NCBI GenBank assembly: GCA_001790815.1 | Contig: MGDU01000023.1 | Span: 1 to 56,921 of the forward strand | Source: Candidatus Uhrbacteria bacterium RIFCSPHIGHO2_02_FULL_46_47 | GTDB lineage: Bacteria; Patescibacteriota; Patescibacteriia; GWA2-47-26 | Reading direction: 5' to 3' | DNA: 56,921 bases | In this document: positions 5,683 to 40,945 of the stretch, one piece after another | Layout of the letters: each line of letters starts with the position of its first letter | Position numbering within the stretch: the stretch's first letter is position 1 | Position numbers and translations under genes: made by a program | The notes under the pieces: generated by a model | Databases searched by the model: none | What the model saw: only the letters and a program-made list of their open reading frames with translations | Told to the model about the DNA's origin: nothing

Positions 5683-5781
5683 GCTGTGATGCAAATCTAC
5701 AAATCTTATGCTAATCTACGAATTGCGAATGAATTATTTGTTATTTGTAGATTGGCATGAAATTCGTACATTGGCATCATA
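5683..5781. repeat. ~97-bp AT-rich hairpin repeat, copy 1 (family H)
   Basis: Near-identical to 30060-30154 (reverse complement) and 40847-40945. 36-bp imperfect terminal inverted arms. Confidence 0.92.
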
Positions 5782-5784
5782 GTT

Positions 5785-7200
5785 TTATCCAATCGGTAAG
5801 TTCTCGGGCGTTTCCTCAGCCGGCAATTCTTTCGGCGATGGAGTATGCACGCCGCCGCCATGCCGGCCGGCTACGCCGCCCATTGGAAGTTCGCGGGGTG
5901 GCTCCGCGCGCTTACTCTCGGCTTTCTTAATAAGCGGCGCTTTTACCGCCTCCGCAATTGGGAAATGCCAAAGCGTGGCCAGCTCTTCAATATTGAGAAC
6001 ATACCCAATATGTCCTCGCCAATTACTGCGCGCTTTGTAGGCGCGGACAATTTTTCTGCGTTTCCAATTTTTGCGCTGTTCCTTAAAAAGATAATGCGCG
6101 TGCGTGCCGATTTTTTTCGTATCCGGCTTTAAGGCATTGAGATCTTCTGTATTGACCTGTTTCATGGCGCCAACCATTCCCCAGGCGACTTTTGGCCGAT
6201 TCATTATATCATGGGGCGCTACATAAATCCCCCGTATTTTTGTGTGAAATCCAATTTTTGCCGCCTTGTGCTCAATTTCCTCAATAATTTCCCTTTCCCC
6301 CGGAGTTAAATACAGCATCTTGGATGGCAATGATTCTTTGGCGTGCGCGTCATGCGCGGGATCTCCCGGCATAAACGCGTCAATTACCATCTCTCCAATA
6401 AGTCCGGGAACGCGCATTATTTTATCAAACAATGTTGTCTTATGTTCTGAAGGAATTCCGGCAAGTTTTTCAATCAAATGATAACTTTTATCCTGCCAGC
6501 TATGAGACGCGATAGGAGTAATAATAATCTGCAACCCGGCAAATTCACCTTGGCGCAGAGAACTAAATGTTTCAAGAAGCGCCGCCATTGGATCCTTAAA
6601 GGTGGCTTCCTCCGCGGTTTCATCATGAAACTCTTCATAGGTGCGAATGGGATATGCTTGTGGCTGAACCAGTTTCCATTCAGTTCCCCATAATTGCCAC
6701 TCCGGATTTGGATATTGATTGGGAAACCACTGCGCGTAATCTTCCGCTTCTCTAATTTCGGCACTTGGGTATTGCGCGTAAATAGCAGACTCAACAAGAT
6801 CGCGCGTTTTAGTTGTAGTGTAAATATAAAATTGTATGTGCCCCTCGGTGCTTACGATTTCCAAGCTGAAATAGGGCTGGGAAAACCCGGTAATGTATTT
6901 CTGTATTAAATCCGGCTTATCATGCGCGCCAGCCAGATGGGCTAAAACATTTTCCACTGCCTTAAGCGTTTGAATATTCTCAGCTGGAACATCAACTGCT
7001 AGCAGCACCCACTTATATTCCCCAGCCGCCTTAAGGGTAATATGCAGTATCCACATCCACTTAAATCCCGCAAAAATCGCGATAACCATGGGAATCCAAG
7101 CTCCATGAATAAACAAATACCACATGCCGTGCAGTGGCGACTGCGCCGCGGCCGCCAAAAGCGGGGTAAAATCAAGAGTCAGCGGGCCAATCTGGATCAT
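5785..7200 (-). CDS. Conserved CPR membrane-anchored protein, partner of the VirB4-like ATPase
   Basis: N-terminal TM segment, FSLEIVSTEGHIQFY, YPIRTY, LNIEELATLWHFP motifs. Start at 7200, 8 nt after TATACT. Confidence 0.75.
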   Translation of the reverse strand: MIQIGPLTLDFTPLLAAAAQSPLHGMWYLFIHGAWIPMVIAIFAGFKWMWILHITLKAAGEYKWVLLAVDVPAENIQTLKAVENVLAHLAGAHDKPDLIQKYITGFSQPYFSLEIVSTEGHIQFYIYTTTKTRDLVESAIYAQYPSAEIREAEDYAQWFPNQYPNPEWQLWGTEWKLVQPQAYPIRTYEEFHDETAEEATFKDPMAALLETFSSLRQGEFAGLQIIITPIASHSWQDKSYHLIEKLAGIPSEHKTTLFDKIMRVPGLIGEMVIDAFMPGDPAHDAHAKESLPSKMLYLTPGEREIIEEIEHKAAKIGFHTKIRGIYVAPHDIMNRPKVAWGMVGAMKQVNTEDLNALKPDTKKIGTHAHYLFKEQRKNWKRRKIVRAYKARSNWRGHIGYVLNIEELATLWHFPIAEAVKAPLIKKAESKRAEPPRELPMGGVAGRHGGGVHTPSPKELPAEETPENLPIG

Positions 7201-7276
7201 AGTTATCCAGTATAGCACAAAAAAGAAGCACATACAATGACGTACGCGCTTCAAAACGTTACAAAGCGGGATATCA

Positions 7277-8158
7277 CTATCTTCTTCTCAGATTATACCA
7301 GGTTACCAAAAACGGCGCGGCAATAAATATGGATGAATAAGTTCCAACCGCAATACCTACAATAAGGGCAAGCGCAAAACTTTGCAGTGACGGGCCGCCA
7401 AAAAGAAAAATCGCAAAAAGCGCGAGCGTGGTCGTAACCGATGTATTAATCGAGCGACTAATTGTTTGGTGCACCGATGCTTCAACAATTTCTTCAAAAG
7501 TACCCTTGAGTTTGCGCACGTTTTCGCGCACGCGGTCAAGCACCACAATGGTATCGGAAATTGAATATCCCAAAATGGTAAGCACTGCGGCAATAAATGG
7601 ACTCCCAACCTCCCATCCTCTAAAATGTCCAAGATACGCAAACAGCCCAAGCGGGATGAGTACGTCATGCAAAAACGCAATGATCACAATGCCGGCGTAC
7701 ACCAGCGCGGGAACCGGCCGTGACACATGCCGGAATGACCACGCAATATAAAATAAGATCATGAGGGTTACCAGAATAACTGACAAAAGCGCGCGGCGGA
7801 AAAGCTCACGGCCAACTGTGGGGCCGATGGAATCAAAACGCACTTCAGTTACTTCTCCGAATTTTTCCTTAAGCTGAAATACAAGATCTTGATGCTCACC
7901 TTCCTTGACCGGCTGAAAACGCAACACCAATGTAGAATTGTCCGCGCTCTGAATTGAAGGGGCCTCCAGATTTATGCTGGTAAATATGCCGGACACCTCT
8001 TCATTGGACGGCAGATTTTTAAATTGCACCTCTAAAAGAGATCCGCCAGTAAAATCAATACTCGGCTTAAGACCCCAAACAAAAAGTGCGATCAATGACA
8101 GCACGATAAGCGCGCCTGAGAATATAAACCAGATTTTTCTGTTTGCGATAATCTGCAT
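7277..8158 (-). CDS. secF: Protein translocase subunit SecF
   Basis: SIDFTGGS, IGPTVG, GYSISDTIVVLDRVREN, SRSINTS; six TM segments. Confidence 0.97.
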   Translation of the reverse strand: MQIIANRKIWFIFSGALIVLSLIALFVWGLKPSIDFTGGSLLEVQFKNLPSNEEVSGIFTSINLEAPSIQSADNSTLVLRFQPVKEGEHQDLVFQLKEKFGEVTEVRFDSIGPTVGRELFRRALLSVILVTLMILFYIAWSFRHVSRPVPALVYAGIVIIAFLHDVLIPLGLFAYLGHFRGWEVGSPFIAAVLTILGYSISDTIVVLDRVRENVRKLKGTFEEIVEASVHQTISRSINTSVTTTLALFAIFLFGGPSLQSFALALIVGIAVGTYSSIFIAAPFLVTWYNLRRR

Positions 8159-8159
8159 A

Positions 8160-10256
8160 TTATCTTTTTACGCGAGTGCCGTACCACCATGATCGTCTCA
8201 CATGTGGAGCTACGATACGGAGAAGTACGCGTGTTACTGTAATTGCGGAAAAAAGCGATACAATTACGCCAACCGAAAGCGTTAGTCCAAATCCTTTTAC
8301 CAAACTGGTGGAAAACCAGAATAAGATAAGCGCTCCGAAAAGCGTAGTCAAATGGCTATCGCGAATAGACGGCCAAGCCCGCTTAAATGCGTCTTCAATC
8401 GCGCTCTGTAATCCTTTTCCACTGCGCAACTCTTCTTTAAGGCGTTCAAACTGCAAAACATTGGCATCAACCGCCATCCCGATAGATAAAATAAATCCTG
8501 CAATGCCCGAAAGCGTAAGTGTCACGGGAATCAATTTAAAAAGCGCGAGTACGATTGTACTATAGATTATGAGCGCAAGCACCGCAAGAACTCCGGCAAA
8601 GCGATAATACAAAATCATGAAAATAGCTACCAGCGCAAATCCAATAAGCCCGGCTTTAAGTGATGCTTGAATCGATGCTTGCCCAAGCGTCGCACCAACT
8701 GTCTGCTGAGAAATCAAATTAATAGGTACAGGAAGCGCGCCGGCATTTAGCCGTTGCACCAAAATTTTTGCCTCTTTTACCGTAAAATTTCCGGTAATAA
8801 CTGCTTTCCCGTCAGTAATCGCGCTTTGTACGCGCGGAACAGAAATCGGCTCGCCATCAAGGAAAATCGCAACTAATTTTCCAAGATTTTTAGTAGTAAT
8901 ATCCGAAAATAATTTCTTTCCCTCATCATTAAACTCAAGACCGACTTCTGGAGTATTGGTATTTTGATCAAATTGCAACAGAGCACGCACTAAGTGTTTT
9001 CCGGAAAGTCCTGTATTTTTCCATGGCGTGGGCGGAGGCAGATAATCCGCCTCGGTCTTTTCCTTAATAAGCACGCGATTAACATTATACGCTTTAAGCG
9101 GGCGTTCCTCTATTTTATAAATGAGATGAAAACCGAATTGCGTTTCAACTACATCAGAAATCGTTCCATTTTGCATGGCAAATATAACGTCTTCAAACGG
9201 CTTAACCATCATACCCTTACCAAACCACCCCAAATCACCACTGCGCTCTGCCGCACCCGGCTCGGTAGAGTTTTCACGCGTGAGTTTTTCAAAATTATCC
9301 GGCGTGGCCTGTGCTTTTAATTCTTCGATTTTCTTGCGCGCCTCATCCTTGGAAGTATCGCGCTCGCAACGATCAGCGCCGCGGAAACAAATCAGCAGAT
9401 GCTGAGCATGCACTTCTTTACCCTTATCTTCAAATGATCTTACTTGAACAAAATTCCATCCCTCACTAGTCAAAATAGGATCAATAGTTATCTTGCCCGC
9501 GCCATTTTTATCTGCCCAAGCCCAAAGCTCTGGATAAGCGCTGGCACCCGTAATAAATCCAATGCTTCCGCCAAAATCTCTGGTCGTAATATCATCCGAA
9601 TATTTTTTAGCCAGCGCCATAAAATCAACTTCAGTTTCGGAAAGCAATGTTTTCTTCACTTCATCCACGCGCTTTTTTGCCTCCTTATTGTATTGCTCAA
9701 GATCGCGCTTTTCATCAATGGTCAGTTCGCGAGTCGGCTCGGGCGTGGATTCTTCTTTAAATTCCAAAACCGGCGTTTCTCCAATTTGCTTGATTGCGGC
9801 CTTTATATCTTTGACTCCCGCAAGCTCAACTACCACACGCCATGAATCTCCGGTTCGCGCGGTTTGCACCAACGGCTCGGCTACTCCAAACGCGTTCACT
9901 CGCCGCTCAATCACATCGCGCACGCCCTCTACTGCACTGTCACGCTCGCTTGAATCAATTTTTAATACATCCGCTTCATAAACCAAGTGCGCGCCACCCT
10001 GAAGATCAAGACCAAGTCTAAACGGCCGCTCAGGATAATGCCCCACACGCAGGGCCTGAGCTTGTCGAAGGCCCCATACATTAGTGTGCGGCACACGCTC
10101 AATCCACCCATTCACCTTATCCGCCGCCACATTCCAGGGTTTGGGATATACCAAGAGCCCAGTTAAAAGAGCGAGCAAAATAACAAAAAATAAGGCCCGG
10201 CGCACTCTCCCGCGCGGACTTGGATTAACCATCCCTTTCCACAACCTTTTAAACAT
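8160..10256 (-). CDS. secD: Protein translocase subunit SecD with inserted parvulin-type PPIase domains
   Basis: LGLDLQGG, IERRVNAFGVAEP, LNAGALPV, IGMAVDANVL. Insert with HAQHLLI...GDLGWF.KGMMVKPFE...ETQFGFHLI. Start probably 10256. Confidence 0.95.
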   Translation of the reverse strand: MFKRLWKGMVNPSPRGRVRRALFFVILLALLTGLLVYPKPWNVAADKVNGWIERVPHTNVWGLRQAQALRVGHYPERPFRLGLDLQGGAHLVYEADVLKIDSSERDSAVEGVRDVIERRVNAFGVAEPLVQTARTGDSWRVVVELAGVKDIKAAIKQIGETPVLEFKEESTPEPTRELTIDEKRDLEQYNKEAKKRVDEVKKTLLSETEVDFMALAKKYSDDITTRDFGGSIGFITGASAYPELWAWADKNGAGKITIDPILTSEGWNFVQVRSFEDKGKEVHAQHLLICFRGADRCERDTSKDEARKKIEELKAQATPDNFEKLTRENSTEPGAAERSGDLGWFGKGMMVKPFEDVIFAMQNGTISDVVETQFGFHLIYKIEERPLKAYNVNRVLIKEKTEADYLPPPTPWKNTGLSGKHLVRALLQFDQNTNTPEVGLEFNDEGKKLFSDITTKNLGKLVAIFLDGEPISVPRVQSAITDGKAVITGNFTVKEAKILVQRLNAGALPVPINLISQQTVGATLGQASIQASLKAGLIGFALVAIFMILYYRFAGVLAVLALIIYSTIVLALFKLIPVTLTLSGIAGFILSIGMAVDANVLQFERLKEELRSGKGLQSAIEDAFKRAWPSIRDSHLTTLFGALILFWFSTSLVKGFGLTLSVGVIVSLFSAITVTRVLLRIVAPHVRRSWWYGTRVKR

Positions 10257-10260
10257 AATC

Positions 10261-10360
10261 TTCAATGGTAGTCGCAGGTCTTTAGCCTGCGCAATTCGCT
10301 TCAATGGTAGTCGCAGGTCTTTAGCCTGCGCAATTCGCCGGCTGAAGACCGGCGGCTACA
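10261..10360. repeat. GTAG-type REP cluster with exact 39-bp tandem duplication (family G1)
   Basis: TTCAATGGTAGTCGCAGGTCTTTAGCCTGCGCAATTCGC at 10261-10299 and 10300-10338, then CGGCTGAAGACCGGCGGCTAC. Confidence 0.85.
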
Positions 10361-10393
10361 ATTATTGTGCCCAATATACACTACCTCTTAAAA

Positions 10394-11437
10394 TCACGCA
10401 AGCCGCCTCACAATCCCTTGCTCCGCATCTACCTCCAACCGATCACCGGTTTTTAATTGCTCCGTTGCAGTTTTAAGACCAACAACAGTTGGCACCTTTA
10501 GCTCGCGCGCCATAATTGCGGCATGGCAAGTTACACCGCCCTGATCAGTTACGATTGCTCGCACGCGTTTCAGATATGGCACGATGGTATAGCGCGTCAT
10601 AGAACATACCAGTATTGCGCCACGCGGGATGCGCTTAAAATCTTCCGCATTAAACGCCACATATGCCTTTCCCTTTACTTTTCCGGAATAAACAGTTTGA
10701 CCTTTGAATTCGCAAAACTGATCTGTAGCTTGAAAACGCAAAAATTCTTTGGCAAATATACGGTCCGCTTCACGATTCCAATATACGCGAGTCTTGCCAT
10801 TAAGAGTTAAAAGCGCACAGGTTTTCCGTTGTTTAAAATCTTTGGGAAACGTCTTTGTCAAAAGTACTGCTTGAACCTCGCTGGGTAAAAGTTTCATAGC
10901 ATCGCCCACTGGTATCCCTAGTAATGGTCCTAATCGTAAGCGATACATTGGCTCCAATTTAGCAAGTTGCCGCGCGGCATAATCCCTGTCTAAGCCAAAC
11001 CGGTAAATAAGATGTTTATTTTTCTGCACCCCCACCATCTCCGCCAATTCAGGAGTTTGGAAAACTGCACAAAATGTGCCCCATGCTTGATAAAATTTAT
11101 CAATGTTTTGCTCTAAATTTGCTCTGCTTGAGAATGTATTTTGGGTAATTGAGAGTAGATCATCTGCCGCAGATCGAATCGCTTTTCCCACTTGCTTAAC
11201 AAAATGCGGATTGAAATTTTTTTCCAAGAATATTTTTAATCCCTTAAGATCGGCAACGCCGCGGAGTGAATATTCAAATCCATTGATATAATAAAATAAG
11301 GTATTCCGAAATCGCCACCGCAAAGCTGAATTTTTTCCGCGCACATATCCCGCATTCACCAAAAATATATCAAACGGAAAAAACTCCACTTTGCGAATCA
11401 AATACCACCGCCCTACTTTTTGATATCCCATGTTCAT
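10394..11437 (-). CDS. PEP-utilizing enzyme mobile (phospho-His swivel) domain protein 1
   Basis: C-terminal ILVCSMT...IVTDQGGVTCHAAIMARELKVPTVVG...VDAEQG. No ATP-grasp domain. Confidence 0.88.
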   Translation of the reverse strand: MNMGYQKVGRWYLIRKVEFFPFDIFLVNAGYVRGKNSALRWRFRNTLFYYINGFEYSLRGVADLKGLKIFLEKNFNPHFVKQVGKAIRSAADDLLSITQNTFSSRANLEQNIDKFYQAWGTFCAVFQTPELAEMVGVQKNKHLIYRFGLDRDYAARQLAKLEPMYRLRLGPLLGIPVGDAMKLLPSEVQAVLLTKTFPKDFKQRKTCALLTLNGKTRVYWNREADRIFAKEFLRFQATDQFCEFKGQTVYSGKVKGKAYVAFNAEDFKRIPRGAILVCSMTRYTIVPYLKRVRAIVTDQGGVTCHAAIMARELKVPTVVGLKTATEQLKTGDRLEVDAEQGIVRRLA

Positions 11438-11450
11438 ACTTTACCTAGTC

Positions 11451-11479
11451 TTGACAGCGTGCTTATTTTGCTGTATTAT
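11451..11479 (+). promoter_or_regulatory. Sigma70 promoter TTGACA-N17-TATTAT
   Basis: Near-consensus hexamers with 17-bp spacer; GGAGG RBS at 11538-11542. Confidence 0.75.
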
Positions 11480-11547
11480 AGCATGTTAGTCCTGGAATTG
11501 GCAGTACAACCGAACGGCTAACGCCGTTCTTACTAGAGGAGGAAGCC

Positions 11548-12156
11548 GTGAGACAAATTTGGATTCCGCACCTGACGAAGATGTCCGTTGCCGAGGGACG
11601 CGAACGCTTCGGAGACGCGTTCGACCCCGCAGACCCGCCGCTTTCCAACAAGGCAAAGGAGGGAGCGGTACGGCTGACCGACGATCTGCAAAAGGCATTC
11701 GGATCGCCGACCATGATCTTCCACTCGCCCAAGCTCCGGTGCATGCAAACCGCCGCACCGGCGATCGAACGCTTTGGCCAGCATCACAAAGGCGGCGTGC
11801 TCGTGGTTTCGCTGAACACGCTGGCTCAGCCCGACTCCGGGGATGTGGACCCGAATCACCCCAATGCGCGGCCGGACGGATTGGTCATCTACGGCCCGCC
11901 TTCCACAGATCGGCAGTGGCTACAGTGGTTCGGGACCAGCTTCTGGACCATCCGCGCGCTTACGAGTGCGCAGGAAGGGACGATCTGGGTCTTCACTCAC
12001 CGGCCACTCGTCGCTTGCGCGCGCTGGGTGGCACAACGGAGATTCTGTCCACTCTCCAATGGAGAGACGATCGACGCCCTGGACAAGTCGCTCCTTCCGT
12101 ACTGCATCTTCAAGATCGACACGAACACGATTTGGAAGGAGGTTCCCCGAGAGTAG
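11548..12156 (+). CDS. Histidine-phosphatase-fold protein with degenerate RHG motif
   Basis: WIPH (for RHG), DPPLS, IFHSPKLRCMQTA, VFTH match the superfamily order. GTG start with SD; GC-rich. Confidence 0.65.
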   Translation: MRQIWIPHLTKMSVAEGRERFGDAFDPADPPLSNKAKEGAVRLTDDLQKAFGSPTMIFHSPKLRCMQTAAPAIERFGQHHKGGVLVVSLNTLAQPDSGDVDPNHPNARPDGLVIYGPPSTDRQWLQWFGTSFWTIRALTSAQEGTIWVFTHRPLVACARWVAQRRFCPLSNGETIDALDKSLLPYCIFKIDTNTIWKEVPRE

Positions 12157-12259
12157 TCTCACCGCACAGTTCACCTGTTTCGGCTCCGGCGTGCGCACTG
12201 CGCGCACCCGGGGCCGTATTATTTTCCCAGCACTTTCATATATGAAAGTGCTACCTGTT

Positions 12260-13291
12260 TCACAATTTCTTCACAACCCCCCTCTCCGCATCCACCTCCA
12301 CTCGATCACCATTTTTTAAAACTCTTGTCGCAAACCTCGTCCCAATTACACACGGTATCTTCATCTCGCGCGAAATAATTGCGGCATGCGAGGTAAGCCC
12401 GCCCTCATCAGTAACAATCGCGTCGGCATATTTCAGGAGTGGAACAAACTCGGGAGTCGTCATTGACGTTACAAGAATAAACCTCTCTCGCACCCTCACC
12501 CCCTTTGGATTGGAAATTATTTTCACTGATCCCCGTGCAGTACCGCGGCATGCGATTGTACCACGTAATTCGCGGACTTCCCTCACTCGCAACCTGCCAA
12601 GCTCCTTTTGAATAAACTGGTCTGCTTTCTTATCGGTTAAGATACGCTCCCCTCTTGCATCTCTATATACCACGGTTCGCTTTTGCCGTTCTTTATGCAG
12701 TTTTACTGCTTTCTGAAAATTCTTTGTCCGGAGCCCCTCTAAAAATTCCTGAGCAGTCAAGGATTTTATTGCTTCTTTAGGTACATGATATTTTCTTGCC
12801 AGTGTTTCCCAAACTTTTTCAAGTTCACTGCGAATCTCTGTCCAGGAATTTTTGAAATCCAGGCGCAGTTTGCCAACTTTCCAAAGAAAAGCGCGAGGTA
12901 GCTCATGCTCATACCCGATGATACGGGTAATCACCCGATAAGTAGTAAAAAGCCGGTATGCTCGGGCAAAATTCTCAAAAGGTACAACGAGAGACATGTT
13001 CTTCTTTGTAGCACGAGTGAGATCTTTAAGTGCGCGCCGCACGTTGCGCTGATACCGAGGAAGTTCTGCAAGAATGCAGGCCGCGGCTGTGCGATTAGAA
13101 ACTAAAACTTTTGTCTGGCGTTTCACTTCAGAAGTGAGCACATAAAAACTTGCCTCGCCATCTTCCATCAATAAAAAAGTACGACTGTAGGGTACGCCAA
13201 GCACCTCTCCAAGTTCATGAAGATCTCCATCGCACAAAAGCGAAGCATCCAAAATATACAAAGGCCTTTTCACGCTAAAAAACCAACGCAT
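12260..13291 (-). CDS. PEP-utilizing enzyme mobile domain protein 2
   Basis: ILVTSMTTPEFVPL...IVTDEGGLTSHAAIISREMKIPCVIG...VDAERG. Confidence 0.9.
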   Translation of the reverse strand: MRWFFSVKRPLYILDASLLCDGDLHELGEVLGVPYSRTFLLMEDGEASFYVLTSEVKRQTKVLVSNRTAAACILAELPRYQRNVRRALKDLTRATKKNMSLVVPFENFARAYRLFTTYRVITRIIGYEHELPRAFLWKVGKLRLDFKNSWTEIRSELEKVWETLARKYHVPKEAIKSLTAQEFLEGLRTKNFQKAVKLHKERQKRTVVYRDARGERILTDKKADQFIQKELGRLRVREVRELRGTIACRGTARGSVKIISNPKGVRVRERFILVTSMTTPEFVPLLKYADAIVTDEGGLTSHAAIISREMKIPCVIGTRFATRVLKNGDRVEVDAERGVVKKL

Positions 13292-13322
13292 AGAACTCTT
13301 TTGACTAGGAACTACGAATAGA

Positions 13323-13439: not shown

Positions 13440-13485
13440 ATTAAATTTTACTCCTTAACATATCTAATCCCCAAATCCTCAAACT

Positions 13486-29991: not shown

Positions 29992-30059
29992 AATAGATGT
30001 GCACAATTATACCACAGATCATCCCCTTGACTCCATAATCTGCGGGATATAAGGTAGGG

Positions 30060-30154
30060 ATGATGCCAATATACGAATTTCATGCCAATCTACAAATACA
30101 AATGAATTCATTCGCAATTCGTAGATTAGCATAAGATTTGTAGATTTGCATCAC
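30060..30154. repeat. ~97-bp hairpin repeat, copy 2 (family H)
   Basis: ATGATGCCAATATACGAATTTCATGCCAATCTACAAAT...ATTCGTAGATTAGCATAAGATTTGTAGATTTGCATCAC, 4 nt before the dnaB ATG. Confidence 0.92.
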
Positions 30155-30158: not shown

Positions 30159-31529
30159 ATGCCGTCGCGTACGAATATTGAACGCATTCCTCCGCAAAAC
30201 CTTGAAGCCGAACAATCGCTTTTGGGTTCGCTTTTGATTGACCGCGACGCCATGATTAAAATCGCGGATTCAATAACGCCGGAAGATTTTTACAAAGACA
30301 GCCACCGCATGATTTTTGAGGCCATGACGGATTTGTTTCGCGAGCGCGAGCCAATTGATCTGCTTTCACTTGGCAACCGCCTTGAAGAAAAAAAACAGCT
30401 TGAAACTGTTGGCGGACGCAGTTACCTGATTGAACTTTCCAACGCGGTGCCCACCGCGGCAAATGTTCCGCACTACGCCGGCATTGTGCAAAAAAAAGCC
30501 ACTCTGCGCCGGCTTCAACGCGCCGCCGCGGAAATTACAAATCTGTCATTTGAAGAGGCCGAGGAGATTGACCATATTCTTGACAAATCCGAGCAAAAAC
30601 TTTTTGGCGTATCACAAAAATATTTGAAGCAAACTTTTGTGCCGATTCGCGATGTTTTGACCGAGGCCTTTGACCGCATTGATGAGTTGCACCGTGAAAA
30701 AGGAAAATTGCGCGGATTGCCAACCGGATTTTTTGAGCTTGATAATATTTTAGCCGGACTGCAAAAATCCGATCTGGTGATTTTGGCCGCTCGTCCATCA
30801 ATTGGAAAAACTTCGCTTGCCTTGGACATCGCTCGCAATGTCGCCACCCGACAAAAAGAACCCGTTGGTGTATTTAGTTTGGAAATGTCCAAGGAGCAAT
30901 TGGTTGATCGTTTAATCTGCGCTGAGGCCGGGGTTGATCTTTGGCGCATGCGCACCGGCCGTTTGTCGGACAAACCGGAACAAGATGATTTCCCCCGCAT
31001 TGGCCATGCTATCGGCATGCTTTCTGAAGCGCCGCTTTATATTGATGATTCGGCATCTTCTTCGATTATGGAAATTCGCACTAAAGCGCGACGATTGCAG
31101 ATGGAAAAGGGATTGAGTCTTTTAGTAATTGACTATTTACAACTTATGGAATCGCACACCAGAATTGAAAATCGCGTGCAAGAAGTTTCCGAAATAACCC
31201 GCGCGTTAAAATCTATCGCGCGCGAACTGAATATTCCGGTGCTTGCGCTTTCACAACTTTCCCGGGCAGTTGAAGCCCGCTCGCCAGCCATTCCAAAACT
31301 CGCGGATTTGCGCGAAAGCGGATCAATTGAACAAGACGCGGATGTGGTACTTTTTATCTATCGCAAAGCCATGGACAAGAGTCAGCAAAATCTTACTCCG
31401 GAAGAGCGCAATATTGCCGAAATACATATTTCCAAGCACCGCAACGGCCCAACCGGCCAAGTGCAATTATTTTTTGATGAACAAAAAGTAAGTTTCCGCA
31501 ATCTGGATAAAACGGCTACACCGTTTTAA
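30159..31529 (+). CDS. dnaB: Replicative DNA helicase
   Basis: PPQNLEAEQSLLG, AARPSIGKT, VIDYLQLM, DLRESGSIEQDAD, KHRNGPTG. No intein. Confidence 0.99.
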   Translation: MPSRTNIERIPPQNLEAEQSLLGSLLIDRDAMIKIADSITPEDFYKDSHRMIFEAMTDLFREREPIDLLSLGNRLEEKKQLETVGGRSYLIELSNAVPTAANVPHYAGIVQKKATLRRLQRAAAEITNLSFEEAEEIDHILDKSEQKLFGVSQKYLKQTFVPIRDVLTEAFDRIDELHREKGKLRGLPTGFFELDNILAGLQKSDLVILAARPSIGKTSLALDIARNVATRQKEPVGVFSLEMSKEQLVDRLICAEAGVDLWRMRTGRLSDKPEQDDFPRIGHAIGMLSEAPLYIDDSASSSIMEIRTKARRLQMEKGLSLLVIDYLQLMESHTRIENRVQEVSEITRALKSIARELNIPVLALSQLSRAVEARSPAIPKLADLRESGSIEQDADVVLFIYRKAMDKSQQNLTPEERNIAEIHISKHRNGPTGQVQLFFDEQKVSFRNLDKTATPF

Positions 31530-32634: not shown

Positions 32635-32642
32635 TCCGCAGT

Positions 32643-33768: not shown

Positions 33769-33811
33769 GGTTTACCTCCATACTTATCCTATCAAAACCG
33801 GTGAAAAACAC

Positions 33812-33836
33812 AAGACCTCCGATTTTCGGAGGTCTT
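33812..33836 (-). terminator. rplU terminator hairpin
   Basis: AAGACCTCCG-ATTTT-CGGAGGTCTT. Confidence 0.75.
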
Positions 33837-33841
33837 TATTA

Positions 33842-34162
33842 TTAGGCAACGATTTTCTCAATCTTCACCTTTGTATATTCCTGCCGGTGTCCGCGCTTTC
33901 TCTTGTAGCGCACTTTGCGCTTATACTTGATGACCATTACTTTTGGCGCGCGGCCTTGCTCCAAAATCGTGGCTTCCACCTTTGAGCCGGAAACATTTGG
34001 TGTGCCAACTTTCACTTCCCCGCCCTCATCGCCAACCAAAAAAACGCGATCAAACGCAAGCTTATCTCCAACATTGCCAGCTAGCTTTTCCACTTTAAGA
34101 GTAGTTCCATTTTTTACAATATATTGTTTTCCTCCGGTGTGGATTACTGCGATTGTAGACAT
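33842..34162 (-). CDS. rplU: 50S ribosomal protein L21
   Basis: AVIHTGGKQY...KYKRKVRYKRKRGHRQ. Confidence 0.98.
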   Translation of the reverse strand: MSTIAVIHTGGKQYIVKNGTTLKVEKLAGNVGDKLAFDRVFLVGDEGGEVKVGTPNVSGSKVEATILEQGRAPKVMVIKYKRKVRYKRKRGHRQEYTKVKIEKIVA

Positions 34163-34195
34163 AGTTGGCTATACTATCAAAGTATTAAAAAAATG

Positions 34196-34642
34196 TCAAA
34201 TCCGCGCATTATCCCCTATTTTGATATTGTATTTTTCCGTAAAATCCGCGTTGACTTCCAGTACCGCGTCAGCCGGTTCTTTTGGCGAAACCGCAATAGG
34301 AGTTTCCCCCTCAAGTGGATATGGCACATTTTCACTAATATCAACAATCTTTTCTTCCCGAATCCAAATAATATCAAGCGGAAAATGCATGCGATTCATC
34401 CAAAAAGTGTGGCGTGCGGTGCTCACCATTGGAAAATACATCCCCTGATTTTCAGGAAGAGTGGCGCGATCCGAAAGCCCTTGTTGTTGTTTTTCCGCCG
34501 TGTCAGCGATTTCCACGCGCACCTGCGCGCTTCCCACACGCATAACCACTCCTTCCGGCTTCCCCCTCATCTGCTGAACTCTCAAATACACAAACGCCAA
34601 AGCCATGAGTATAAGAAAAGCCGGAACAAGTTTTTTCTTCAT
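34196..34642 (-). CDS. DUF192 family protein
   Basis: VEIADT...GLSDR...GMYF...FWMNRMHFPLDIIWI...VLEVNA. Confidence 0.9.
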   Translation of the reverse strand: MKKKLVPAFLILMALAFVYLRVQQMRGKPEGVVMRVGSAQVRVEIADTAEKQQQGLSDRATLPENQGMYFPMVSTARHTFWMNRMHFPLDIIWIREEKIVDISENVPYPLEGETPIAVSPKEPADAVLEVNADFTEKYNIKIGDNARI

Positions 34643-34678
34643 ATCATATTCTTGTGCTATGTGATACGTGCTAAGTGA

Positions 34679-37300
34679 TTACAATTTCTCCGCTTTTTCT
34701 ACGCGCAACTGGCCTCCTTTTTCCAGCACTACAACATCGCGGCGGCTAAGTTTGGCAGTTAAAAGCAGGTTTGCCAGAGCGTCCTGCACCCGCTCTTGAA
34801 TAACGCGCCTCAGCGGCCGAGCGCCAAATTGCGGATCAAATCCCGCATGCGCAAGCTCGGCAATTGCCTCATCAGTTGCGCGAAAAGTAATTCCTTTGGC
34901 CTCCAGCTGTTTGGCGATTTTCGCGATAATCAAGCGCGCAATCTGTACAATTTCTTCTTCAGTAAGCGGCTTATATACAATCACCGCGTCAAAACGATTC
35001 AAAAATTCCGGCCTGAAATACTGTTTAAGTTCGCGTTCCAAAAGTCCTTTTTTAATTTCTTCAATCGCAGTACCCTTCTTGAGCTCTTCTTGAACATATG
35101 GTGATCCTGCGTTGGAAGTTGCGATAATAATCGCATTGGTAAAATCAATAACTCGTCCGGCGCTGTCGGTTGCGCGTCCGTCATCTAGAACTTGCAAAAA
35201 GATATTTAAAATATCCGGGTGCGCTTTTTCAAGCTCATCCAAAAGCACAAGTGAAAACGGATTTTTGCGCACCGGTTCTGTAAGCAAGCCGCCGCTTTCC
35301 CCCGGCGCTCCAATTATGCGATATACCGCGCTCTTCTCTTGGTATTCAGACATATCCAAGCGAATCATGTTTTCTTCATTGCCAAAATATACTTCCGCCA
35401 CGGTTTTTGCAGTTTCTGTTTTTCCAACACCAGTAGGGCCAAGGAACAAAAAGTTTGCGATTGGTCTTTTTTCTGTACGAAGTTCTGCGCGCGCGCGGCG
35501 AAGCGCGGCGGCAACCGCCTTCACTGCCTCGTCTTGCCCAATTATCCGCTCATGCATAATACTCTCAAGGTGCAACAATTTATCTGCCTCTTTTGCGGTA
35601 ACCGAAGTAACCGGCACATGCGATTTTTGTGAAATAATTTCCGCCACATCTTCTCCGCGCACCAGAGCTTTTTCACCGCGGTGACTGCGCGTATATTGTG
35701 CAGCTTCTTTGATAATATCAATAGCTTTTTCAGGAAGATAATGATCTTTTATATAGCGATCAGTTAGAATGACTGCTTTTTCAAGCGCGCTATAAGAGAA
35801 AAAAGTTTTGGTTTGATATTCAATCGCGCCGACCTTGGATTCCAGAATCTGAATTGTTGTGGAATGATCCGTCTCAGCAATTTCAACAATAACAAACGCA
35901 TTGCCAAGCGCGGTTCCTTCAATGCGGCTGCGATATTCCTCTGGCGTGGTTGTGGCAATCGCCAGAAAATATCCTTTGCTCAACTCGCCTGCCAGTACTT
36001 CAGCCAAATCAAGTCCGCCCGCACCACGTCCTGCGCTTGCTTCATGCACATTGGGAATAGCCAGTACAACATTTCCCGATCGTCCCACATCGTTTAAACA
36101 TGTAAGTAATCGCTGCTCTGCTTCACTTGTTGTTGCGCCGGCAATAAGCTTAGGAAGCGAAAGTGATACAAATCGGCGATCTTGAATAATTTTAGGCACT
36201 TCTTCTTCAACCATCTGCTCTGCTATCCCATTGAGAATTGTCTCTTTTCCAACACCATGCGGACCTACAAGCAATACACTTTTTCGTTCGCCTTGCAGCA
36301 CGCGGAAAATTGCCTCAAATTCCTTTTCGCGATTAACAACAAGTTCAAGATATCCGCGGCCGGCCAAAAGCGTTAAATCGTCCGAGAAACGATCCAGCCG
36401 GCGAGTCTCAAGCGCGGTCATAGCGCGATTCATAGCGCCCGTAGGCTTGCGCGAGGCCGCACCGCGAAACTTACGCCACCGCGCGCGTAATTTATCATTA
36501 ATTTCAAGCCAGCGTACCGCGTTGCGTAATTTTTCCTGATCAACCCCAAGATCAAATAAAATCTCCGTAAGTTTTTCATTTTGCAAAATTGTTTCCAAAA
36601 AAATATGGTGTGTGCCGAGCGTTTGCGCCCGCGCCGTCTGCGCATCGCGATACGCGGCAATCACTGCTTGTTTGGCAGGGTCGCCAAAGATTGGTTGCCC
36701 CTCACCCTCCCCTCTCCCTAAGGGAGAGGATGGCCGTAGGTCAGGTGAGGGCGTCTGTAACACATGCTTTAATCTTTCCTGCAACCCCTTTCCATCAACT
36801 TCAAGGCGCACGAGCAAGGACGCTACCGCGGGAGAACCTAGAAGCGCGGCCAACATATGCGCATTTCGTACTTCAGCATGTTTTAATCTGCTGGTAAATA
36901 AATACGCGTCTTTAATCCTGCGCTCACTATCTTGCGACAACGCGCGCGAAACATCAATACGTTTCCCCTCACCCCTCCCTCTCCCTAAGGGAGAGGATGT
37001 CCGCAGGGCAGGTGAGGGTCGCACATCTTCTTTCCCTTCATCACTCCGCAATACTCGCGCCACTAAATACAAATCCGCAAGCAGTGTAATTCCAAAAATA
37101 AATTTCGCTTTGCTTGGCAATAACCAATAGCTAATAGCCAATAGCCGTTCCACATTTGGCCATGTTTCAAATACAAGCGCTAAAATTCCCAACACGCCAA
37201 ACGCGGCCACCAGTATCGCCACTGCCGCACGCGCAACACGAGCTACACGCTGCGCAAAAAGTGTTGCCCGATCGATTTTTGCGCCAAAATAAAGTTCCAT
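34679..37300 (-). CDS. Membrane-anchored ClpA/B/C-family AAA+ ATPase with two family A inserts
   Basis: N-terminal TM pair, Clp-N repeats, degenerate D1, intact D2 (FLGPTGVGKTE, LLDELEKAH, FRPEFLNRFD, GARPLRR). Start 37300. Confidence 0.9.
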   Translation of the reverse strand: MELYFGAKIDRATLFAQRVARVARAAVAILVAAFGVLGILALVFETWPNVERLLAISYWLLPSKAKFIFGITLLADLYLVARVLRSDEGKEDVRPSPALRTSSPLGRGRGEGKRIDVSRALSQDSERRIKDAYLFTSRLKHAEVRNAHMLAALLGSPAVASLLVRLEVDGKGLQERLKHVLQTPSPDLRPSSPLGRGEGEGQPIFGDPAKQAVIAAYRDAQTARAQTLGTHHIFLETILQNEKLTEILFDLGVDQEKLRNAVRWLEINDKLRARWRKFRGAASRKPTGAMNRAMTALETRRLDRFSDDLTLLAGRGYLELVVNREKEFEAIFRVLQGERKSVLLVGPHGVGKETILNGIAEQMVEEEVPKIIQDRRFVSLSLPKLIAGATTSEAEQRLLTCLNDVGRSGNVVLAIPNVHEASAGRGAGGLDLAEVLAGELSKGYFLAIATTTPEEYRSRIEGTALGNAFVIVEIAETDHSTTIQILESKVGAIEYQTKTFFSYSALEKAVILTDRYIKDHYLPEKAIDIIKEAAQYTRSHRGEKALVRGEDVAEIISQKSHVPVTSVTAKEADKLLHLESIMHERIIGQDEAVKAVAAALRRARAELRTEKRPIANFLFLGPTGVGKTETAKTVAEVYFGNEENMIRLDMSEYQEKSAVYRIIGAPGESGGLLTEPVRKNPFSLVLLDELEKAHPDILNIFLQVLDDGRATDSAGRVIDFTNAIIIATSNAGSPYVQEELKKGTAIEEIKKGLLERELKQYFRPEFLNRFDAVIVYKPLTEEEIVQIARLIIAKIAKQLEAKGITFRATDEAIAELAHAGFDPQFGARPLRRVIQERVQDALANLLLTAKLSRRDVVVLEKGGQLRVEKAEKL
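36698..36751. repeat. Family A element in frame in the Clp ATPase
   Basis: Encodes PSPDLRPSSPLGRGEGEG. Confidence 0.9.
36965..37018. repeat. Family A element in frame in the Clp ATPase
   Basis: Encodes PSPALRTSSPLGRGRGEG. Confidence 0.9.
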
Positions 37301-37313
37301 ATTATCTACGCCA

Positions 37314-37393
37314 CCCCGCTTAAGATAAGAGGGGTTGGGGGAGTTATGAACCGCGCATAACCCCTCCAACCTCCCCTTACCTTAAGGGGAGGG
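37314..37393. repeat. Family B element containing the stop of the upstream gene
   Basis: CCCCGCTTAAGATAAGAGGGG...CCTCCCCTTACCTTAAGGGGAGGG; TAA at 37384-37382. Confidence 0.88.
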
Positions 37394-37747
37394 AATTTGT
37401 AACCAAATTAAATACACAATCCCAACCGGAATTAAAACCCAGATCATCAACCAAATAAGAAGCAACCCTGCCCAAATAATTAACACAATTGATCTGCCAA
37501 TAATCTGCGCGAGCCGCATGAAAAAACTAATAATACGGCCGGCGATATCATACTGGCCGTACATGGGCTTACTGATGTTTTTAATCCAAACGCTAATTCC
37601 AAGCGCATCTTGGCGTGCCGCAAGACTTCCGGAAACAGCGCGCATTTGTTTTAAAAGCCCGCGCGTGTACCACCAAACCGGGGTATAGAAAAAATCCGCA
37701 ACTACATCAAGAAGCACCGTGCGAAGGGTTTGGAGAAATGTCCCCAT
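37382..37747 (-). CDS. Conserved small membrane protein upstream of the Clp ATPase
   Basis: WWYTRG...WIKNISKPMYGQYDIAGRIISFFMR plus hydrophobic C-terminus. Confidence 0.8.
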   Translation of the reverse strand: MGTFLQTLRTVLLDVVADFFYTPVWWYTRGLLKQMRAVSGSLAARQDALGISVWIKNISKPMYGQYDIAGRIISFFMRLAQIIGRSIVLIIWAGLLLIWLMIWVLIPVGIVYLIWLQIPSP

Positions 37748-37768
37748 AGGTGTCCTATTGTACCATAG

Positions 37769-39130
37769 CTAGAGTGTGCCTTCCACTACTGCGTTTTGTA
37801 GTCCCACCATAAAATCAAGATAAAATTTCACATTGTGAATGGTAGCAAGACGAAGCGCAAGCGGTTCATTGATTTTGAAAAGATGCCGAAGATACGCGCG
37901 ACTGTGGTGCGTGCAAGTAAAACATTCACAATACGGATCAATAGGCTTAAAATCCGCGCGATATTTTTCATTGGTGATGCGCATGGTGTCGTAAAAATTG
38001 CCTCGTAACCCCCTCTCACTCCCCCTTACCCTAAGGGGGAGAAGCGGCCGGTCTCCCTCCCTTAAGGTAAGGGAGGGCTGGGGAGGGTTATGACGCCACA
38101 CATATAAATTTCCATGCCTTGCATTTCTTGTGGGCAGTACACAGTCAAACATATCAATGCCACGCCGCACGGCCTCCACAAGTTCCTCCGGTTGGCCAAG
38201 ACCCATAAGATAGCGCGGTTTATCTTCCGGTAACATCGGCGCGACCCAATCTACCACTTGGTATTTTTCTTTTTGCGGCTCACCTACTGCCACTCCGCCA
38301 ATTGCATAGCCATCAAAATCCAGCGCCACCAAATCCCGCGCTGATTGCTCACGCAAATCCTTATACACTGATCCCTGCACAATGCCAAAAACCAATGTTT
38401 TAATGCTTTCATGTTTTAATACTTTCATGCTCCTCTCCGCCCAAGAGGTTGTTCTCTCCATTGCCTCCCGCGCGCCTTCTTTTGAAATCGGGTACGGCGC
38501 GCAAACATCCAGCACCATGGCAATATCTGATCCAATCACTTTTTGAATCTCCAGCACGCGCTCAGGTGTGAACATATCTTTTCTGCCACTTATCCGATCA
38601 ATAAACTCCGCACCGTCTTTAGTTATGCGGACATCATAATCCTGACCCTCACCCTCCCCTCTCCCTCGGGGAGAGGGAAATTGATTAGACCCCCCTCTAC
38701 CCGCGGGAGAGGGTGTCCGAAGGACGGGTGAGGGGTTACGATTCTTATTTGCTAGGCTAAACACCTGATACCCACCAGAATCAGTCAAAATCGGCCCATT
38801 CCATCCCATAAACTTGTGCAATCCGCCGGCTTTTTTAATTACCTCCATTCCCGGCCGCACATAAAGATGGTAGGTGTTGGAAAGCAAAATCGGCCCGCCT
38901 CTCCCACCACCGCTCATGCCTCCACTCCGTTTCGGTTCTGTGGCACCAGCATCTCGGCGGGCAAGCGCACCAATCTCCCTCATATCTTCCGCCGCCAATG
39001 TCTTGACTGCCCCGCGCGTGGCAATGGTCATAAAAAACGGCGTGCGTACTTTCCCATGCGCAGTCCTCAACTCTCCCACCCGTGCTCGGGATTTTTTTGA
39101 CTGGTGTAATACGCGAAATGGATTCATCAT
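37769..39130 (-). CDS. tgt: tRNA-guanine transglycosylase with three inserts
   Basis: SNTYHL, LTDSGGYQVFSL, GIVQG, YLMG, DMFDCVLPTRNARHG, C.C..C...HN zinc site. Confidence 0.97.
   Translation of the reverse strand: MMNPFRVLHQSKKSRARVGELRTAHGKVRTPFFMTIATRGAVKTLAAEDMREIGALARRDAGATEPKRSGGMSGGGRGGPILLSNTYHLYVRPGMEVIKKAGGLHKFMGWNGPILTDSGGYQVFSLANKNRNPSPVLRTPSPAGRGGSNQFPSPRGRGEGEGQDYDVRITKDGAEFIDRISGRKDMFTPERVLEIQKVIGSDIAMVLDVCAPYPISKEGAREAMERTTSWAERSMKVLKHESIKTLVFGIVQGSVYKDLREQSARDLVALDFDGYAIGGVAVGEPQKEKYQVVDWVAPMLPEDKPRYLMGLGQPEELVEAVRRGIDMFDCVLPTRNARHGNLYVWRHNPPQPSLTLREGDRPLLPLRVRGSERGLRGNFYDTMRITNEKYRADFKPIDPYCECFTCTHHSRAYLRHLFKINEPLALRLATIHNVKFYLDFMVGLQNAVVEGTL
38006..38092. repeat. Family B element in frame in tgt
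   Basis: Encodes [29 protein letters not shown]. Confidence 0.9.
38646..38735. repeat. Family A doublet in frame in tgt
   Basis: Encodes PSPVLRTPSPAGRGGSNQFPSPRGRGEGEG. Confidence 0.9.
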
Positions 39131-39302
39131 AATAGATCAGTAATTATACCACAAAACAAACAAACCCTTCTGGGCTTTCCTTTTCCTTGCCGCAACCTAC
39201 AAATCTTTAATGCGGCCGCATTGCAAATATGTAGGTTTTTTAAAATAATTTTTAATCAGATGCTGACAAATCGGATCTATTGTACTACATAGGATCCTTT
39301 GT

Positions 39303-39330
39303 AAAAAACCCTGCCGAAAAGCAGGGTTTT
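39303..39330. terminator. Bidirectional-type terminator hairpin
   Basis: AAAACCCTGC-CGAAAA-GCAGGGTTTT. Confidence 0.75.
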
Positions 39331-39354
39331 ACTATCTAAACTTCGAATGAGTTA

Positions 39355-39615
39355 CTAGTCCGCTTGCATAAGCAGTGCAAGTTCTTCAGCCAATGCCTTA
39401 TCCCACGCTGCAACTTTTTCTTCGCGCATTGCTTTAAACTTTTTTGCCATTATCGCACATAATTTTTCAGCGCGATTTGGTTTTTCCTCAAGAAATCCTA
39501 TAAGCGCCGTGGCATCTTTTGGCGGAAAATAACTTATGAGCGCGGTAAGCGCCTGCTTATGCTCATCAGTCACAGGCAATAGCCCAATACGTTTTTTTAT
39601 TTCATTGTTTGCCAT
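39355..39615 (-). CDS. Hypothetical helical protein
   Basis: 86-aa ORF starting 4 nt after the upstream stop, followed by a terminator. Confidence 0.7.
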   Translation of the reverse strand: MANNEIKKRIGLLPVTDEHKQALTALISYFPPKDATALIGFLEEKPNRAEKLCAIMAKKFKAMREEKVAAWDKALAEELALLMQAD

Positions 39616-39619
39616 AATT

Positions 39620-40312
39620 TTACTTGGTGATCCTTATTTGCTCATCAACCTGACTGCGAAAATTTACTATATCATCTGGTGTCCATCTAGGCGTTTCTCC
39701 TCGCCGCACACTCATTTCCGCCCACTTCAATCCTATATCATTAAGCGTATCCGCCGCAAATATTTCTATACTCTCAAGACCACCTTTACCCTCACGGCGC
39801 ATATTGTCAGCTTTAAACCCCAGAGAAGTCCCTTTCACAGACCCTTCATCAGCCAGCGATTCATCAATGGCTTCATCTCTAGTAATTTCACCTCGCGCAA
39901 AGCGATCGGCGACTGAACCGGTTTGTGGCGAACCATAATATTTAAGCCGATGTTCTATACGAGCTTGATGGATTTGTTTCGCCTGCCATACTGCTCCGGT
40001 TTCTGCGGCAAGTCCAAACGCGTATGCTAAAAGCAAACCTTTGCCGATTTTTCTGCCGGTTGGACCAAGCATGCGCAAGCCCTTGATATTGCGCGCCAGC
40101 ATGGAACCAAGATTTTTTATCCGCTCCGTGGGCGAGGATTCGCGTTCGCGCTTCCCTTCTACTTTTTTATCCGTGCCACCCTTTGCGATTCCTTGCAGTC
40201 GCTCCTCCGATTTACGAATTTCCGCTTCCGTAGGTAGTGAAATAGGAATTTGCTCACCAGGGCGAAGCGGCTTTTGTTCAGTTACTGATGCTTTAGATAG
40301 TCTTTCTCTCAT
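39620..40312 (-). CDS. Hypothetical protein with one predicted TM segment
   Basis: 230-aa ORF; upstream TTGCAG-N17-TATGAT. Confidence 0.7.
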   Translation of the reverse strand: MRERLSKASVTEQKPLRPGEQIPISLPTEAEIRKSEERLQGIAKGGTDKKVEGKRERESSPTERIKNLGSMLARNIKGLRMLGPTGRKIGKGLLLAYAFGLAAETGAVWQAKQIHQARIEHRLKYYGSPQTGSVADRFARGEITRDEAIDESLADEGSVKGTSLGFKADNMRREGKGGLESIEIFAADTLNDIGLKWAEMSVRRGETPRWTPDDIVNFRSQVDEQIRITK

Positions 40313-40416
40313 AAAATTTCTTATGCTTTATCAATTAAAATCATACTCTCTCTATCTATAAACTGCAAGCCACGCCCTGTGGACAACACAAAAAGCCTGC
40401 TAGGACTTATCATATC

Positions 40417-40467
40417 TTATTCTCTCATTCACGCGCCTGCCTGCCTTTGGCAGGAATGAGAGAATAA
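40417..40467. repeat. Hairpin with nested CCTGCC/GGCAGG core
   Basis: TTATTCTCTCATTC...GAATGAGAGAATAA 14-bp arms. Confidence 0.65.
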
Positions 40468-40491
40468 CTCTTTGTGATGTGAGTGAGATAA

Positions 40492-40845
40492 TTATCGTGC
40501 CGCCACTACTCCGGTGGTGGCCGAGACATATTGCACATTGGTGGCGGCGACCATGCCAGACTGTTTAACCCACTCTTCAATGCGCGCGGGCGATTGCGCC
40601 TCTGCTACTTTCAAATTGAGTTTTTTATTTTCCAATTTCAAATCTTCAATACGGCGCTCTAAATCGCGAATTTTATAGCCGCGAGTAGAAATAGTAATAA
40701 CGCTAACAAGGTAAGAAAAACCCACTACCATAAGCGCGACAAGTAAAATTCCACGCCAACTTTTTTGCTTGCTCAAAAATCTGACGAATAAACTAATTCG
40801 CCGCATGGTGTGATGGACTCTTGTGAGATGAAAATGCCTAGGCAT
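40492..40845 (-). CDS. ftsL: FtsL-like cell division protein
   Basis: Follows mraZ-rsmH. Basic N-terminus, one TM, coiled coil, SPARIEEW. Confidence 0.7.
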   Translation of the reverse strand: MPRHFHLTRVHHTMRRISLFVRFLSKQKSWRGILLVALMVVGFSYLVSVITISTRGYKIRDLERRIEDLKLENKKLNLKVAEAQSPARIEEWVKQSGMVAATNVQYVSATTGVVAAR

Positions 40846-40846
40846 A

Positions 40847-40945
40847 GCTGTGATGCAAATCTACAAATCTTATGCTAATCTACGAATTGTGAATAAATTC
40901 ATTTGTATTTGTAGATTGGCATGAAATTCGTATATTGGCATCATA
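40847..40945. repeat. ~97-bp hairpin repeat, copy 3 (family H)
   Basis: Spans from the rsmH stop codon to just before the ftsL ATG. Confidence 0.92.

Follow-up and report, generated by a model that had tools for sequence, protein, structure and literature searches.

A hairpin repeat placed in sense just before start codons in a Candidatus Uhrbacteria genome: a probable insertion element derived from a nuclease cassette

Introduction

The Correia elements of Neisseria (CREE/NEMIS) are non-coding hairpin repeats of about 100 bp with terminal inverted repeats. They are often flanked by TA, lie near gene starts and are co-transcribed with genes, and they have been discussed in the literature as carriers of promoters and RNase III sites. 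The intervening sequences (IVS) of the 23S rRNA in Leptospira and Coxiella contain the S23p open reading frame (ORF) inside a long stem. Hairpin versions without the ORF also exist, and these sequences are transcribed within the host transcript. Promoters of leaderless genes are known from Actinobacteria and Deinococcus. For bacterial hairpin repeats, the position is usually loose and the mobilising enzymes are often unknown. Here, we describe a hairpin repeat with a sharp rule of placement, which occurs three times in a stretch of 56,921 nucleotides from Candidatus Uhrbacteria bacterium RIFCSPHIGHO2_02_FULL_46_47 (contig MGDU01000023.1 of assembly GCA_001790815.1; this whole stretch is called the window). 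The window is contig C23 of the genome, referred to below as G000, which comprises approximately 1.02 Mb in 27 contigs at 47% GC. The host is described as a tiny groundwater bacterium.

With a probability of roughly 0.7, we interpret the repeat as a non-autonomous hairpin insertion element similar to a miniature inverted-repeat transposable element (MITE), and as an ORF-less derivative of a cassette that encodes a GxxExxY / PD-(D/E)XK nuclease. The element is inserted either into a stop-to-start junction or into the interval between the -10 box and the ATG of a leaderless-type promoter. Its polarity is that of the cassette ORF and also that of the downstream host gene. An original prediction, made from the letters of the window alone, had offered a MITE that prefers translation starts as its target as one reading of the repeat, and this reading is supported by the orientation of the copies, by empty sites in relatives and by a likely parent with a nuclease ORF. 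The link to the nuclease, the exact insertion interval, a sister family and the occurrence of the same rule in other lineages of the Candidate Phyla Radiation (CPR) are added here.

Three copies in the window

The three copies and the features that adjoin them are the following.

3826-5673, minus strand: TrwB/TraG-type coupling ATPase gene (assigned by Pfam), downstream of copy 1
5683-5781, minus strand: copy 1, a family-1 hairpin of the long-loop class, between the stop codon of a 489-aa ORF and the ATG of the TrwB-like ATPase gene
30027-30055, plus strand: ancestral sigma-70-type dnaB promoter, TTGACT-N17-TAAGGT, kept in relatives and ending 4 nt before copy 2
30060-30154, plus strand: copy 2, preceded by the ancestral dnaB promoter and followed by the dnaB ATG (30159)
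30159-31529, plus strand: dnaB (Pfam DnaB), downstream of copy 2
40492-40845, minus strand: ftsL/DivIC-like gene (Pfam DivIC/FtsL-like), downstream of copy 3
40847-40945, minus strand: copy 3, which occupies the junction between rsmH (product MraW/RsmH by Pfam) and ftsL

That these copies are nearly identical had been noticed in the original prediction, and alignment agrees, with pairwise identities of 95-98% over 95-100 nt. Because this identity includes the loop, it points to recent copying. The 15-mer at the arm end has 14 matches in the window at up to three mismatches, against 1.8 expected from shuffled sequences. Folding also bore out the proposed long imperfect hairpin with 36-nt arms of tandem units of about 19 nt. 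Each copy forms a single stem of about 36 bp with segments of 6/3/9/4/7/3 bp and a loop of about 17-22 nt (-34 to -39 kcal/mol; z about -5), and each arm consists of two GTAGATTnGCAT units.

In all three copies the same end, ...TTTGCATCAC, faces the start codon of the gene that follows, as had been described for the ATPase gene, dnaB and ftsL. The gap is 12 nt at the ATPase junction, where the minus-strand start is at 5673 (CAC-agcattgcacct-ATG), and 4 nt at dnaB, which starts at 30159 (CAC-ctct-ATG). It is also 4 nt at ftsL, where ...CATCAC is separated by agct from the minus-strand ATG at 40845 (CAC-agct-ATG). Two copies had been placed at or just after the preceding stop codon, and this also holds: the rsmH stop TGA (40941-40943) falls within the 5' end of copy 3, and 3 nt separate copy 1 from the TAA (5785-5787) that closes the 489-aa ORF before it.

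Each copy is in sense with its own downstream gene, copy 2 on the plus strand and the other two on the minus strand. Since GC skew has a single sign over the whole window although copy 2 is inverted relative to copies 1 and 3, polarity tracks the gene rather than the replication fork. Replication strand as the determinant of polarity was ruled out on the same grounds.

Empty and filled sites in related genomes

Comparison with genomes of the same family identifies the copies as lineage-specific insertions. The orthologous site was empty at all four loci checked, namely dnaB, the rsmH-ftsL junction, the ATPase junction and smc. Upstream of dnaB, the relatives G004, G005, G003 and G002 have TTGACG-N17-TAAGGT, 9-13 nt and the ATG, without the element, whereas G000 has TTGACT-N17-TAAGGT, aggg, the 95-nt element, ctct and the ATG. 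An example of an empty site reads ...TAAGGTnnnnnnnnATGCC... The rsmH-ftsL junction is filled in G000, and measures 8 nt in G004 and 17 nt in G002. The ATPase junction is likewise filled in G000, and in G003 it is 7 nt long and free of the element. At smc, the site is filled in G000 (contig C13, 6817-6897), whereas G003 has TACAAT, 9 nt and the ATG, and the site is also empty in G004 and G005. Both dnaB and smc retain the ancestral sigma-70 promoter, which now stands directly upstream of the element. The original prediction had suggested looking for empty sites in relatives, and each of the three window copies has one.

At smc, the element is present with 80% identity on a 2.5-kb contig as well (C102 of G016; locus L047), which was binned with a genome of another family. 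The N-terminus of the SMC protein encoded there is 85% identical to SMC of G000, against 62% for the smc of G016 itself. Judged from these identities, the contig was probably mis-binned and comes from a close relative of G000, and for this reason ancient conservation of the smc insertion across families was dropped. Since the site is filled in a close relative, at least one short-loop copy is older than a speciation, and the young long-loop copies are recent.

Different repeats are found at two of these junctions in G005, which belongs to a related genus. The rsmH-ftsL spacer (L037, approximately 1395-1450) contains six or seven tandem CCTGATTTA units that form a 9-mer array. The ATPase junction (L040, approximately 3355-3450) contains a different hairpin of about 95 nt, composed of TTATTAAG-type words. 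The ftsL and ATPase junctions are thus recurrent landing sites that take up other repeats in other lineages.

Two families with one rule of placement

The family was collected over G000 by BLAST and an iterated nhmmer model of the arm. Family 1 comprises 16 full hairpins (81-99 bp), five solo arms and one ORF-bearing copy with arms 380 bp apart. The hairpins fall into long-, mid- and short-loop classes, and their inverted repeat, TGATGCCAAT...ATTTGCATCA, runs on through the 36-nt arms. A sister family, family 2, was picked up by the arm model as well; it has 15 hairpins of 87-109 nt with the ends TGATACGAATC...GATTCGTATCA, and three of them are identical. Seven family-2 hairpins have the following positions in G000, and there are eight others.

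Contig C25, 2942-3029: family-2 hairpin
Contig C25, 19949-20036: family-2 hairpin
Contig C21, 33722-33809: family-2 hairpin
Contig C5, 26632-26719: family-2 hairpin
Contig C5, 27006-27092: family-2 hairpin
Contig C20, 42675-42770: family-2 hairpin
Contig C9, 21962-22057: family-2 hairpin

Family 2 precedes groES, groEL, fusA, rplA, rpsM, topA, a thioredoxin gene and others. Its members are in sense with the gene, mostly at operon junctions, and 3-12 nt separate them from the ATG.

Placement was scored over both families, and a start codon was counted if it opened an ORF of at least 50 codons in the same reading direction. Random orientation relative to gene starts, which the original prediction had named as the contrary outcome, was not observed genome-wide. 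The 3' arm stops 4-16 nt short of a co-directional start codon at 36 of 37 loci. Under random intergenic position and orientation the chance of such a placement is 6.8%, which gives P of about 3e-41. The modal spacing, GCAT-N7-ATG, is present in 11 of the 22 family-1 loci. The arms are also distinguished by type: the arm nearest the ATG is of the A type in 15 of the 16 family-1 hairpins, and in all 15 hairpins of family 2 it is the corresponding arm. Nine family-1 hairpins and the ORF-bearing copy on contig C17 fill tandem stop-to-start junctions. Most of the remaining hairpins are in divergent regions, where they adjoin one ATG while the start of the other gene is 30-190 nt away. Convergent gaps hold none of the 37 copies, though they make up 17% of intergenic bases.

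This distribution bears on an ordinary MITE driven by a transposase, either of the IS630/Tc1-mariner-like type with a TA target or of the type formed by repetitive extragenic palindromes (REP/REPIN) and their RAYT transposases. Proximity to starts would then follow from the compactness of the genome alone. TA does flank many copies (left side 11/15 and right side 10/15 in family 2), the terminal inverted repeats extend over at least 11 nt, and three Y1_Tnp genes are present in G000. However, the DDE_3 transposase (PF13358) has no match in G000, and family words were not found within 1.5 kb of any Y1_Tnp gene. A TA target also predicts random orientation, and it would not account for the avoidance of convergent gaps, which are safe, or for the fact that even in divergent regions of 60-200 nt the element lies within 16 nt of one ATG. 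Since TA is palindromic, the flanking TA could belong to the inverted repeat. We therefore regard an ordinary transposase MITE as very improbable.

Sequences at the junction were inspected for a target signature. The word ATGCC was ruled out as a target-site duplication because it belongs to the inverted repeat. Starts beside the elements read ATGC in about 50% of cases versus 23% genome-wide, a modest enrichment, and ATGC also matches the terminal word of the element, ATGC(C/A)AAT. The enrichment may hint at a recognised sequence.

The five solo arms (C18 47763, C22 61845, C20 50419, C2 28631 and C22 63749) are all of the B type and all face an ATG. An AUG-free 3' arm as the determinant of polarity is unsupported, because these gene-adjacent solo arms are of the type that contains AUG. 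Three short-loop copies (C10 34269, C10 43593 and C5 32976) differ from the others in the orientation of the loop segment, which is turned round with respect to the arms; this suggests flip-flop recombination between the inverted arms.

A nuclease-bearing cassette as the likely parent

At C17 12123-12586 in G000, two family-1 arms flank an ORF of 131 aa at the place where the loop would be. This cassette is located between the ruvC stop and the next ATG. The ORF matches TIGR04256 (GxxExxY; 1e-21) and PF13366 (PDDEXK_3; 7e-23) and is a member of the PD-(D/E)XK family, a membership that was also considered with regard to cassettes of the homing-endonuclease type. The ends of the cassette are 88% (5' side) and about 90% (3' side) identical to the hairpin. 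The alignment takes in the segments nearest the loop (5', ACAAATACAAAT; 3', CATTCGCAATTCG) in the same polarity, so that the hairpin corresponds to the cassette minus approximately 396 bp. From this alignment, the C17 cassette is the likely parent element of the hairpins.

Two more genes of this family are enclosed by arms in G000, and their arms consist of other short words (GCTGATA/ATCAGCG and CTACTAA/TTAGTAG for the C11 and C9 cassettes).

Contig C11, 22850-23520: GxxExxY/PDDEXK_3 gene with arms of other short words; the cassette ends right before the ATG of a gene resembling ATP synthase epsilon
Contig C9, 14430-15100: GxxExxY/PDDEXK_3 gene between inverted arms of other short words

The C17 protein has 223 relatives in public genomes. 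Eight CPR loci were examined, and five of them have inverted arms of 46-52 nt on both sides of the ORF. A cassette from Magasanikbacteria uses the same words (TATGATGCGAAT...GTAGATTAGCATCAT) and is directly followed by the ATG of pth, a gene that bears a solo arm in G000. In three of four further cassettes, at most 7 nt separate the end from the next ATG (dnaE, a kinase gene and recR), and in the fourth (L089) the ATG is about 26 nt away.

Arms of this type were also sought in metagenomes, where a degenerate 31-nt arm pattern matched more than 105 contigs. An ATG was present within 16 nt of the arm at 63 of 105 loci, against a chance level estimated at about 25%, and the 7-nt gap is among the commonest spacings, as in G000. 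Five metagenome contigs carry two arm matches on the same strand about 465 nt apart. In the one of these that was read, L195 (metagenome contig Ga0100387_10035941, 2150-2830), the arms flank a GxxExxY ORF. This ORF is apparently truncated at 88 aa, with family-1-type arms on both sides, and the start of efp is separated from it by an additional block of hairpin-like repeats. The arrangement in L195 looks nested or composite.

Host promoters and the promoter-like arm

Gene starts in G000 look to be of the leaderless type. Strong matches to TTGACA-N16-18-TAnnnT have an in-frame start 8-9 nt after the -10 box, and about 40 such promoters have a start at 6-12 nt, whereas the out-of-frame control gives about 11. 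Enrichment of Shine-Dalgarno motifs is not seen, with 12.5% before start codons and 11.5% in a control window, and T precedes 73% of ATG starts. In at least eight of 12 non-tandem contexts, the 5' end of the element follows a canonical TTGACA-N17-TAnnnT promoter at a distance of 4-12 nt. As the element fills the interval in which the transcript would begin, it should be transcribed as a leader.

A rival explanation is that the repeat is a compact promoter module. The 3' arm, with its two GTAGATTnGCAT units, would start near-leaderless mRNAs, and the hairpin would consist of two back-to-back promoters. The short and often fixed distance between arm and ATG fits such a module, as do the orientation of every solo arm towards an ATG, the leaderless-style geometry of the genome and the presence of the sister family before groES, groEL, fusA, rplA and rpsM. 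The B arm is itself promoter-like: in a consensus scan of the dnaB region it alone was called, as TTGGCA-N17-CATCAT with an upstream TG. However, this arm faces outward, and the A arm that faces dnaB was not called by the scan; the gene-side arm of full hairpins ends in CATCAC and fails the -10 T criterion. At dnaB, smc and six or more further loci, the element has an intact canonical promoter immediately before it, and the orthologues in relatives use those promoters, or operon junctions of 7-8 nt, without any element. Spacing between arm and ATG shows a variation of 3-9 nt within family 2; over all loci it ranges from 4 to 16 nt, with a mode of 7. Near-identity that extends into the loop, the existence of an ORF-bearing form and the palindromic structure of the second family also speak against a promoter module, which we consider unlikely.

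Upstream promoters, the scan, the variable spacing and the empty sites together argue that promoter activity does not define the hairpins. Single arms may nevertheless have such activity, above all the five B-type solo arms, which may be exapted promoters. In the window, the B arm corresponds to 30060-30103 on the minus strand; it is a fair sigma-70 match, and in full hairpins it is directed away from the gene beside it.

Folding of the transcribed element

Over the two families, the hairpins have folding energies of -16 to -40 kcal/mol. In young copies of both families, the sense RNA is less stable than the antisense RNA by about 10 kcal/mol, and the longest perfect helix of the sense RNA is 9 bp. 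A weaker sense RNA was rejected as a general rule, since it applies to the young copies but not to the older ones; the counts are 12 of 16 for family 1 and 8 of 15 for family 2.

These folds are relevant to a second rival, in which the repeat is a selected cis-acting RNA. It would be an RNase III site or a clamp between stop and start codons, which provides a 5' end near the AUG or a hand-over of ribosomes. Promoters or upstream genes lead into the hairpin, so that it must be transcribed, and the base of the stem joins the stop and start codons. The rnc gene is present in G000, Shine-Dalgarno sequences are not used, and G005 has a different hairpin or tandem repeats at the same junctions. On the other hand, compensatory changes were not found: between the smc copies of G000 and of contig C102, the arm differences, compared by eye, break pairs. 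The lower stability of the sense RNA in young copies and the short perfect helix are also unfavourable for a selected RNA structure, and relatives manage without the element. A search of Rfam gave no family match and only a sub-threshold resemblance to miRNA hairpins. A search of RNA runs for the dnaB stretch had no match. We consider a selected RNA element unlikely.

Proposed mode of insertion and its implications

We return to the insertion element derived from the nuclease cassette. In the proposed mechanism, the nuclease made by ORF-bearing copies would act in trans to mobilise or copy the arms. The start-proximal site and the sense polarity would result from the insertion mechanism or from a need of the cassette for read-through transcription. 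Passive tolerance of insertions is not sufficient, because the safe sites between convergent genes are never used. The inserted element would be co-transcribed as a 5' leader or as an intercistronic hairpin, and the host could tolerate it because its genome uses neither Shine-Dalgarno sequences nor long leaders.

Several points weigh against this interpretation. Clean target-site duplications, which the original prediction had also suggested looking for, were not found; TA flanks about half of the copies, and no longer duplication was detected. Presence/absence polymorphism was not seen in the Logan contigs of four host metagenomes, which break at the repeat, and no empty-site joint was among the matches listed. 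GxxExxY proteins are not known for transposition or cleavage activity, and a search for solved structures related by sequence gave none. The near-symmetry of the element makes its strict polarity hard to explain by selection. Furthermore, the five solo arms that face an ATG and the modal spacing of 7 nt hint that the gene-side arm may have a function of its own.

A broader proposal is that array-armed GxxExxY cassettes and their ORF-less hairpins represent an unrecognised class of CPR mobile elements that target, in sense, the nucleotides before start codons. Insertion might be tolerated, or even useful, if the hairpin is cut (e.g., by RNase III) or bypassed, so that the downstream gene regains a 5' end or a ribosome hand-over next to the AUG in a leaderless genome that lacks Shine-Dalgarno sequences. 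This proposal is tentative, and we hold it to be possible but on the unlikely side. In the literature searched, we found no description of such elements and no published function for GxxExxY / PD-(D/E)XK. If the proposal is true, it would provide the first function for the large, uncharacterised GxxExxY / PDDEXK_3 family.

The rule of placement, 4-16 nt before a start codon and in sense, holds for the two families in G000, for cassettes of other CPR bacteria and for about 60% of the arm copies in metagenomes. It also draws attention to the gene layout of ultra-small bacteria, in which the -10 box lies 8-9 nt before the ATG without a ribosome-binding site, and the element exploits this interval. 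If the nuclease link holds, the system offers a testable model for a selfish element that targets start codons. For annotators, the practical consequence is that conserved motifs upstream of genes may be insertions instead of regulatory DNA.

Comparison with known systems

The repeat resembles Correia elements and bacterial MITEs in being a hairpin repeat of about 100 bp with terminal inverted repeats, TA flanks and a placement at gene starts. It differs from Correia elements in several respects. There is no sequence similarity, and the arms are arrays of 19-nt words. Polarity is nearly absolute here, with the end of the element at most 16 nt from the ATG, and the full-length relative carries a PD-(D/E)XK nuclease and no transposase.

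As in the 23S rRNA IVS, inverted arms enclose a small ORF, hairpin versions without the ORF exist and the element is expected to lie inside a host transcript. Unlike the IVS, it is located outside rRNA and has a different cargo protein, and its excision by RNase III is only a possibility. The REP/REPIN-RAYT systems are similar in their dispersed hairpin doublets with GTAG/CTAC words, and Y1 transposase genes are present in G000. However, the units described here are not palindromic REPs, and no RAYT gene is flanked by family words. In addition, REPs are typically found at the 3' ends of genes, whereas these elements are at 5' ends.

The setting of the element resembles that of leaderless promoters, as the -10 box of the host lies 8-9 nt before the ATG without a Shine-Dalgarno sequence, and it is into this interval that the element inserts. 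In contrast to leaderless promoters, the element itself is an insertion downstream of such promoters, and a promoter role of its own is only a candidate.

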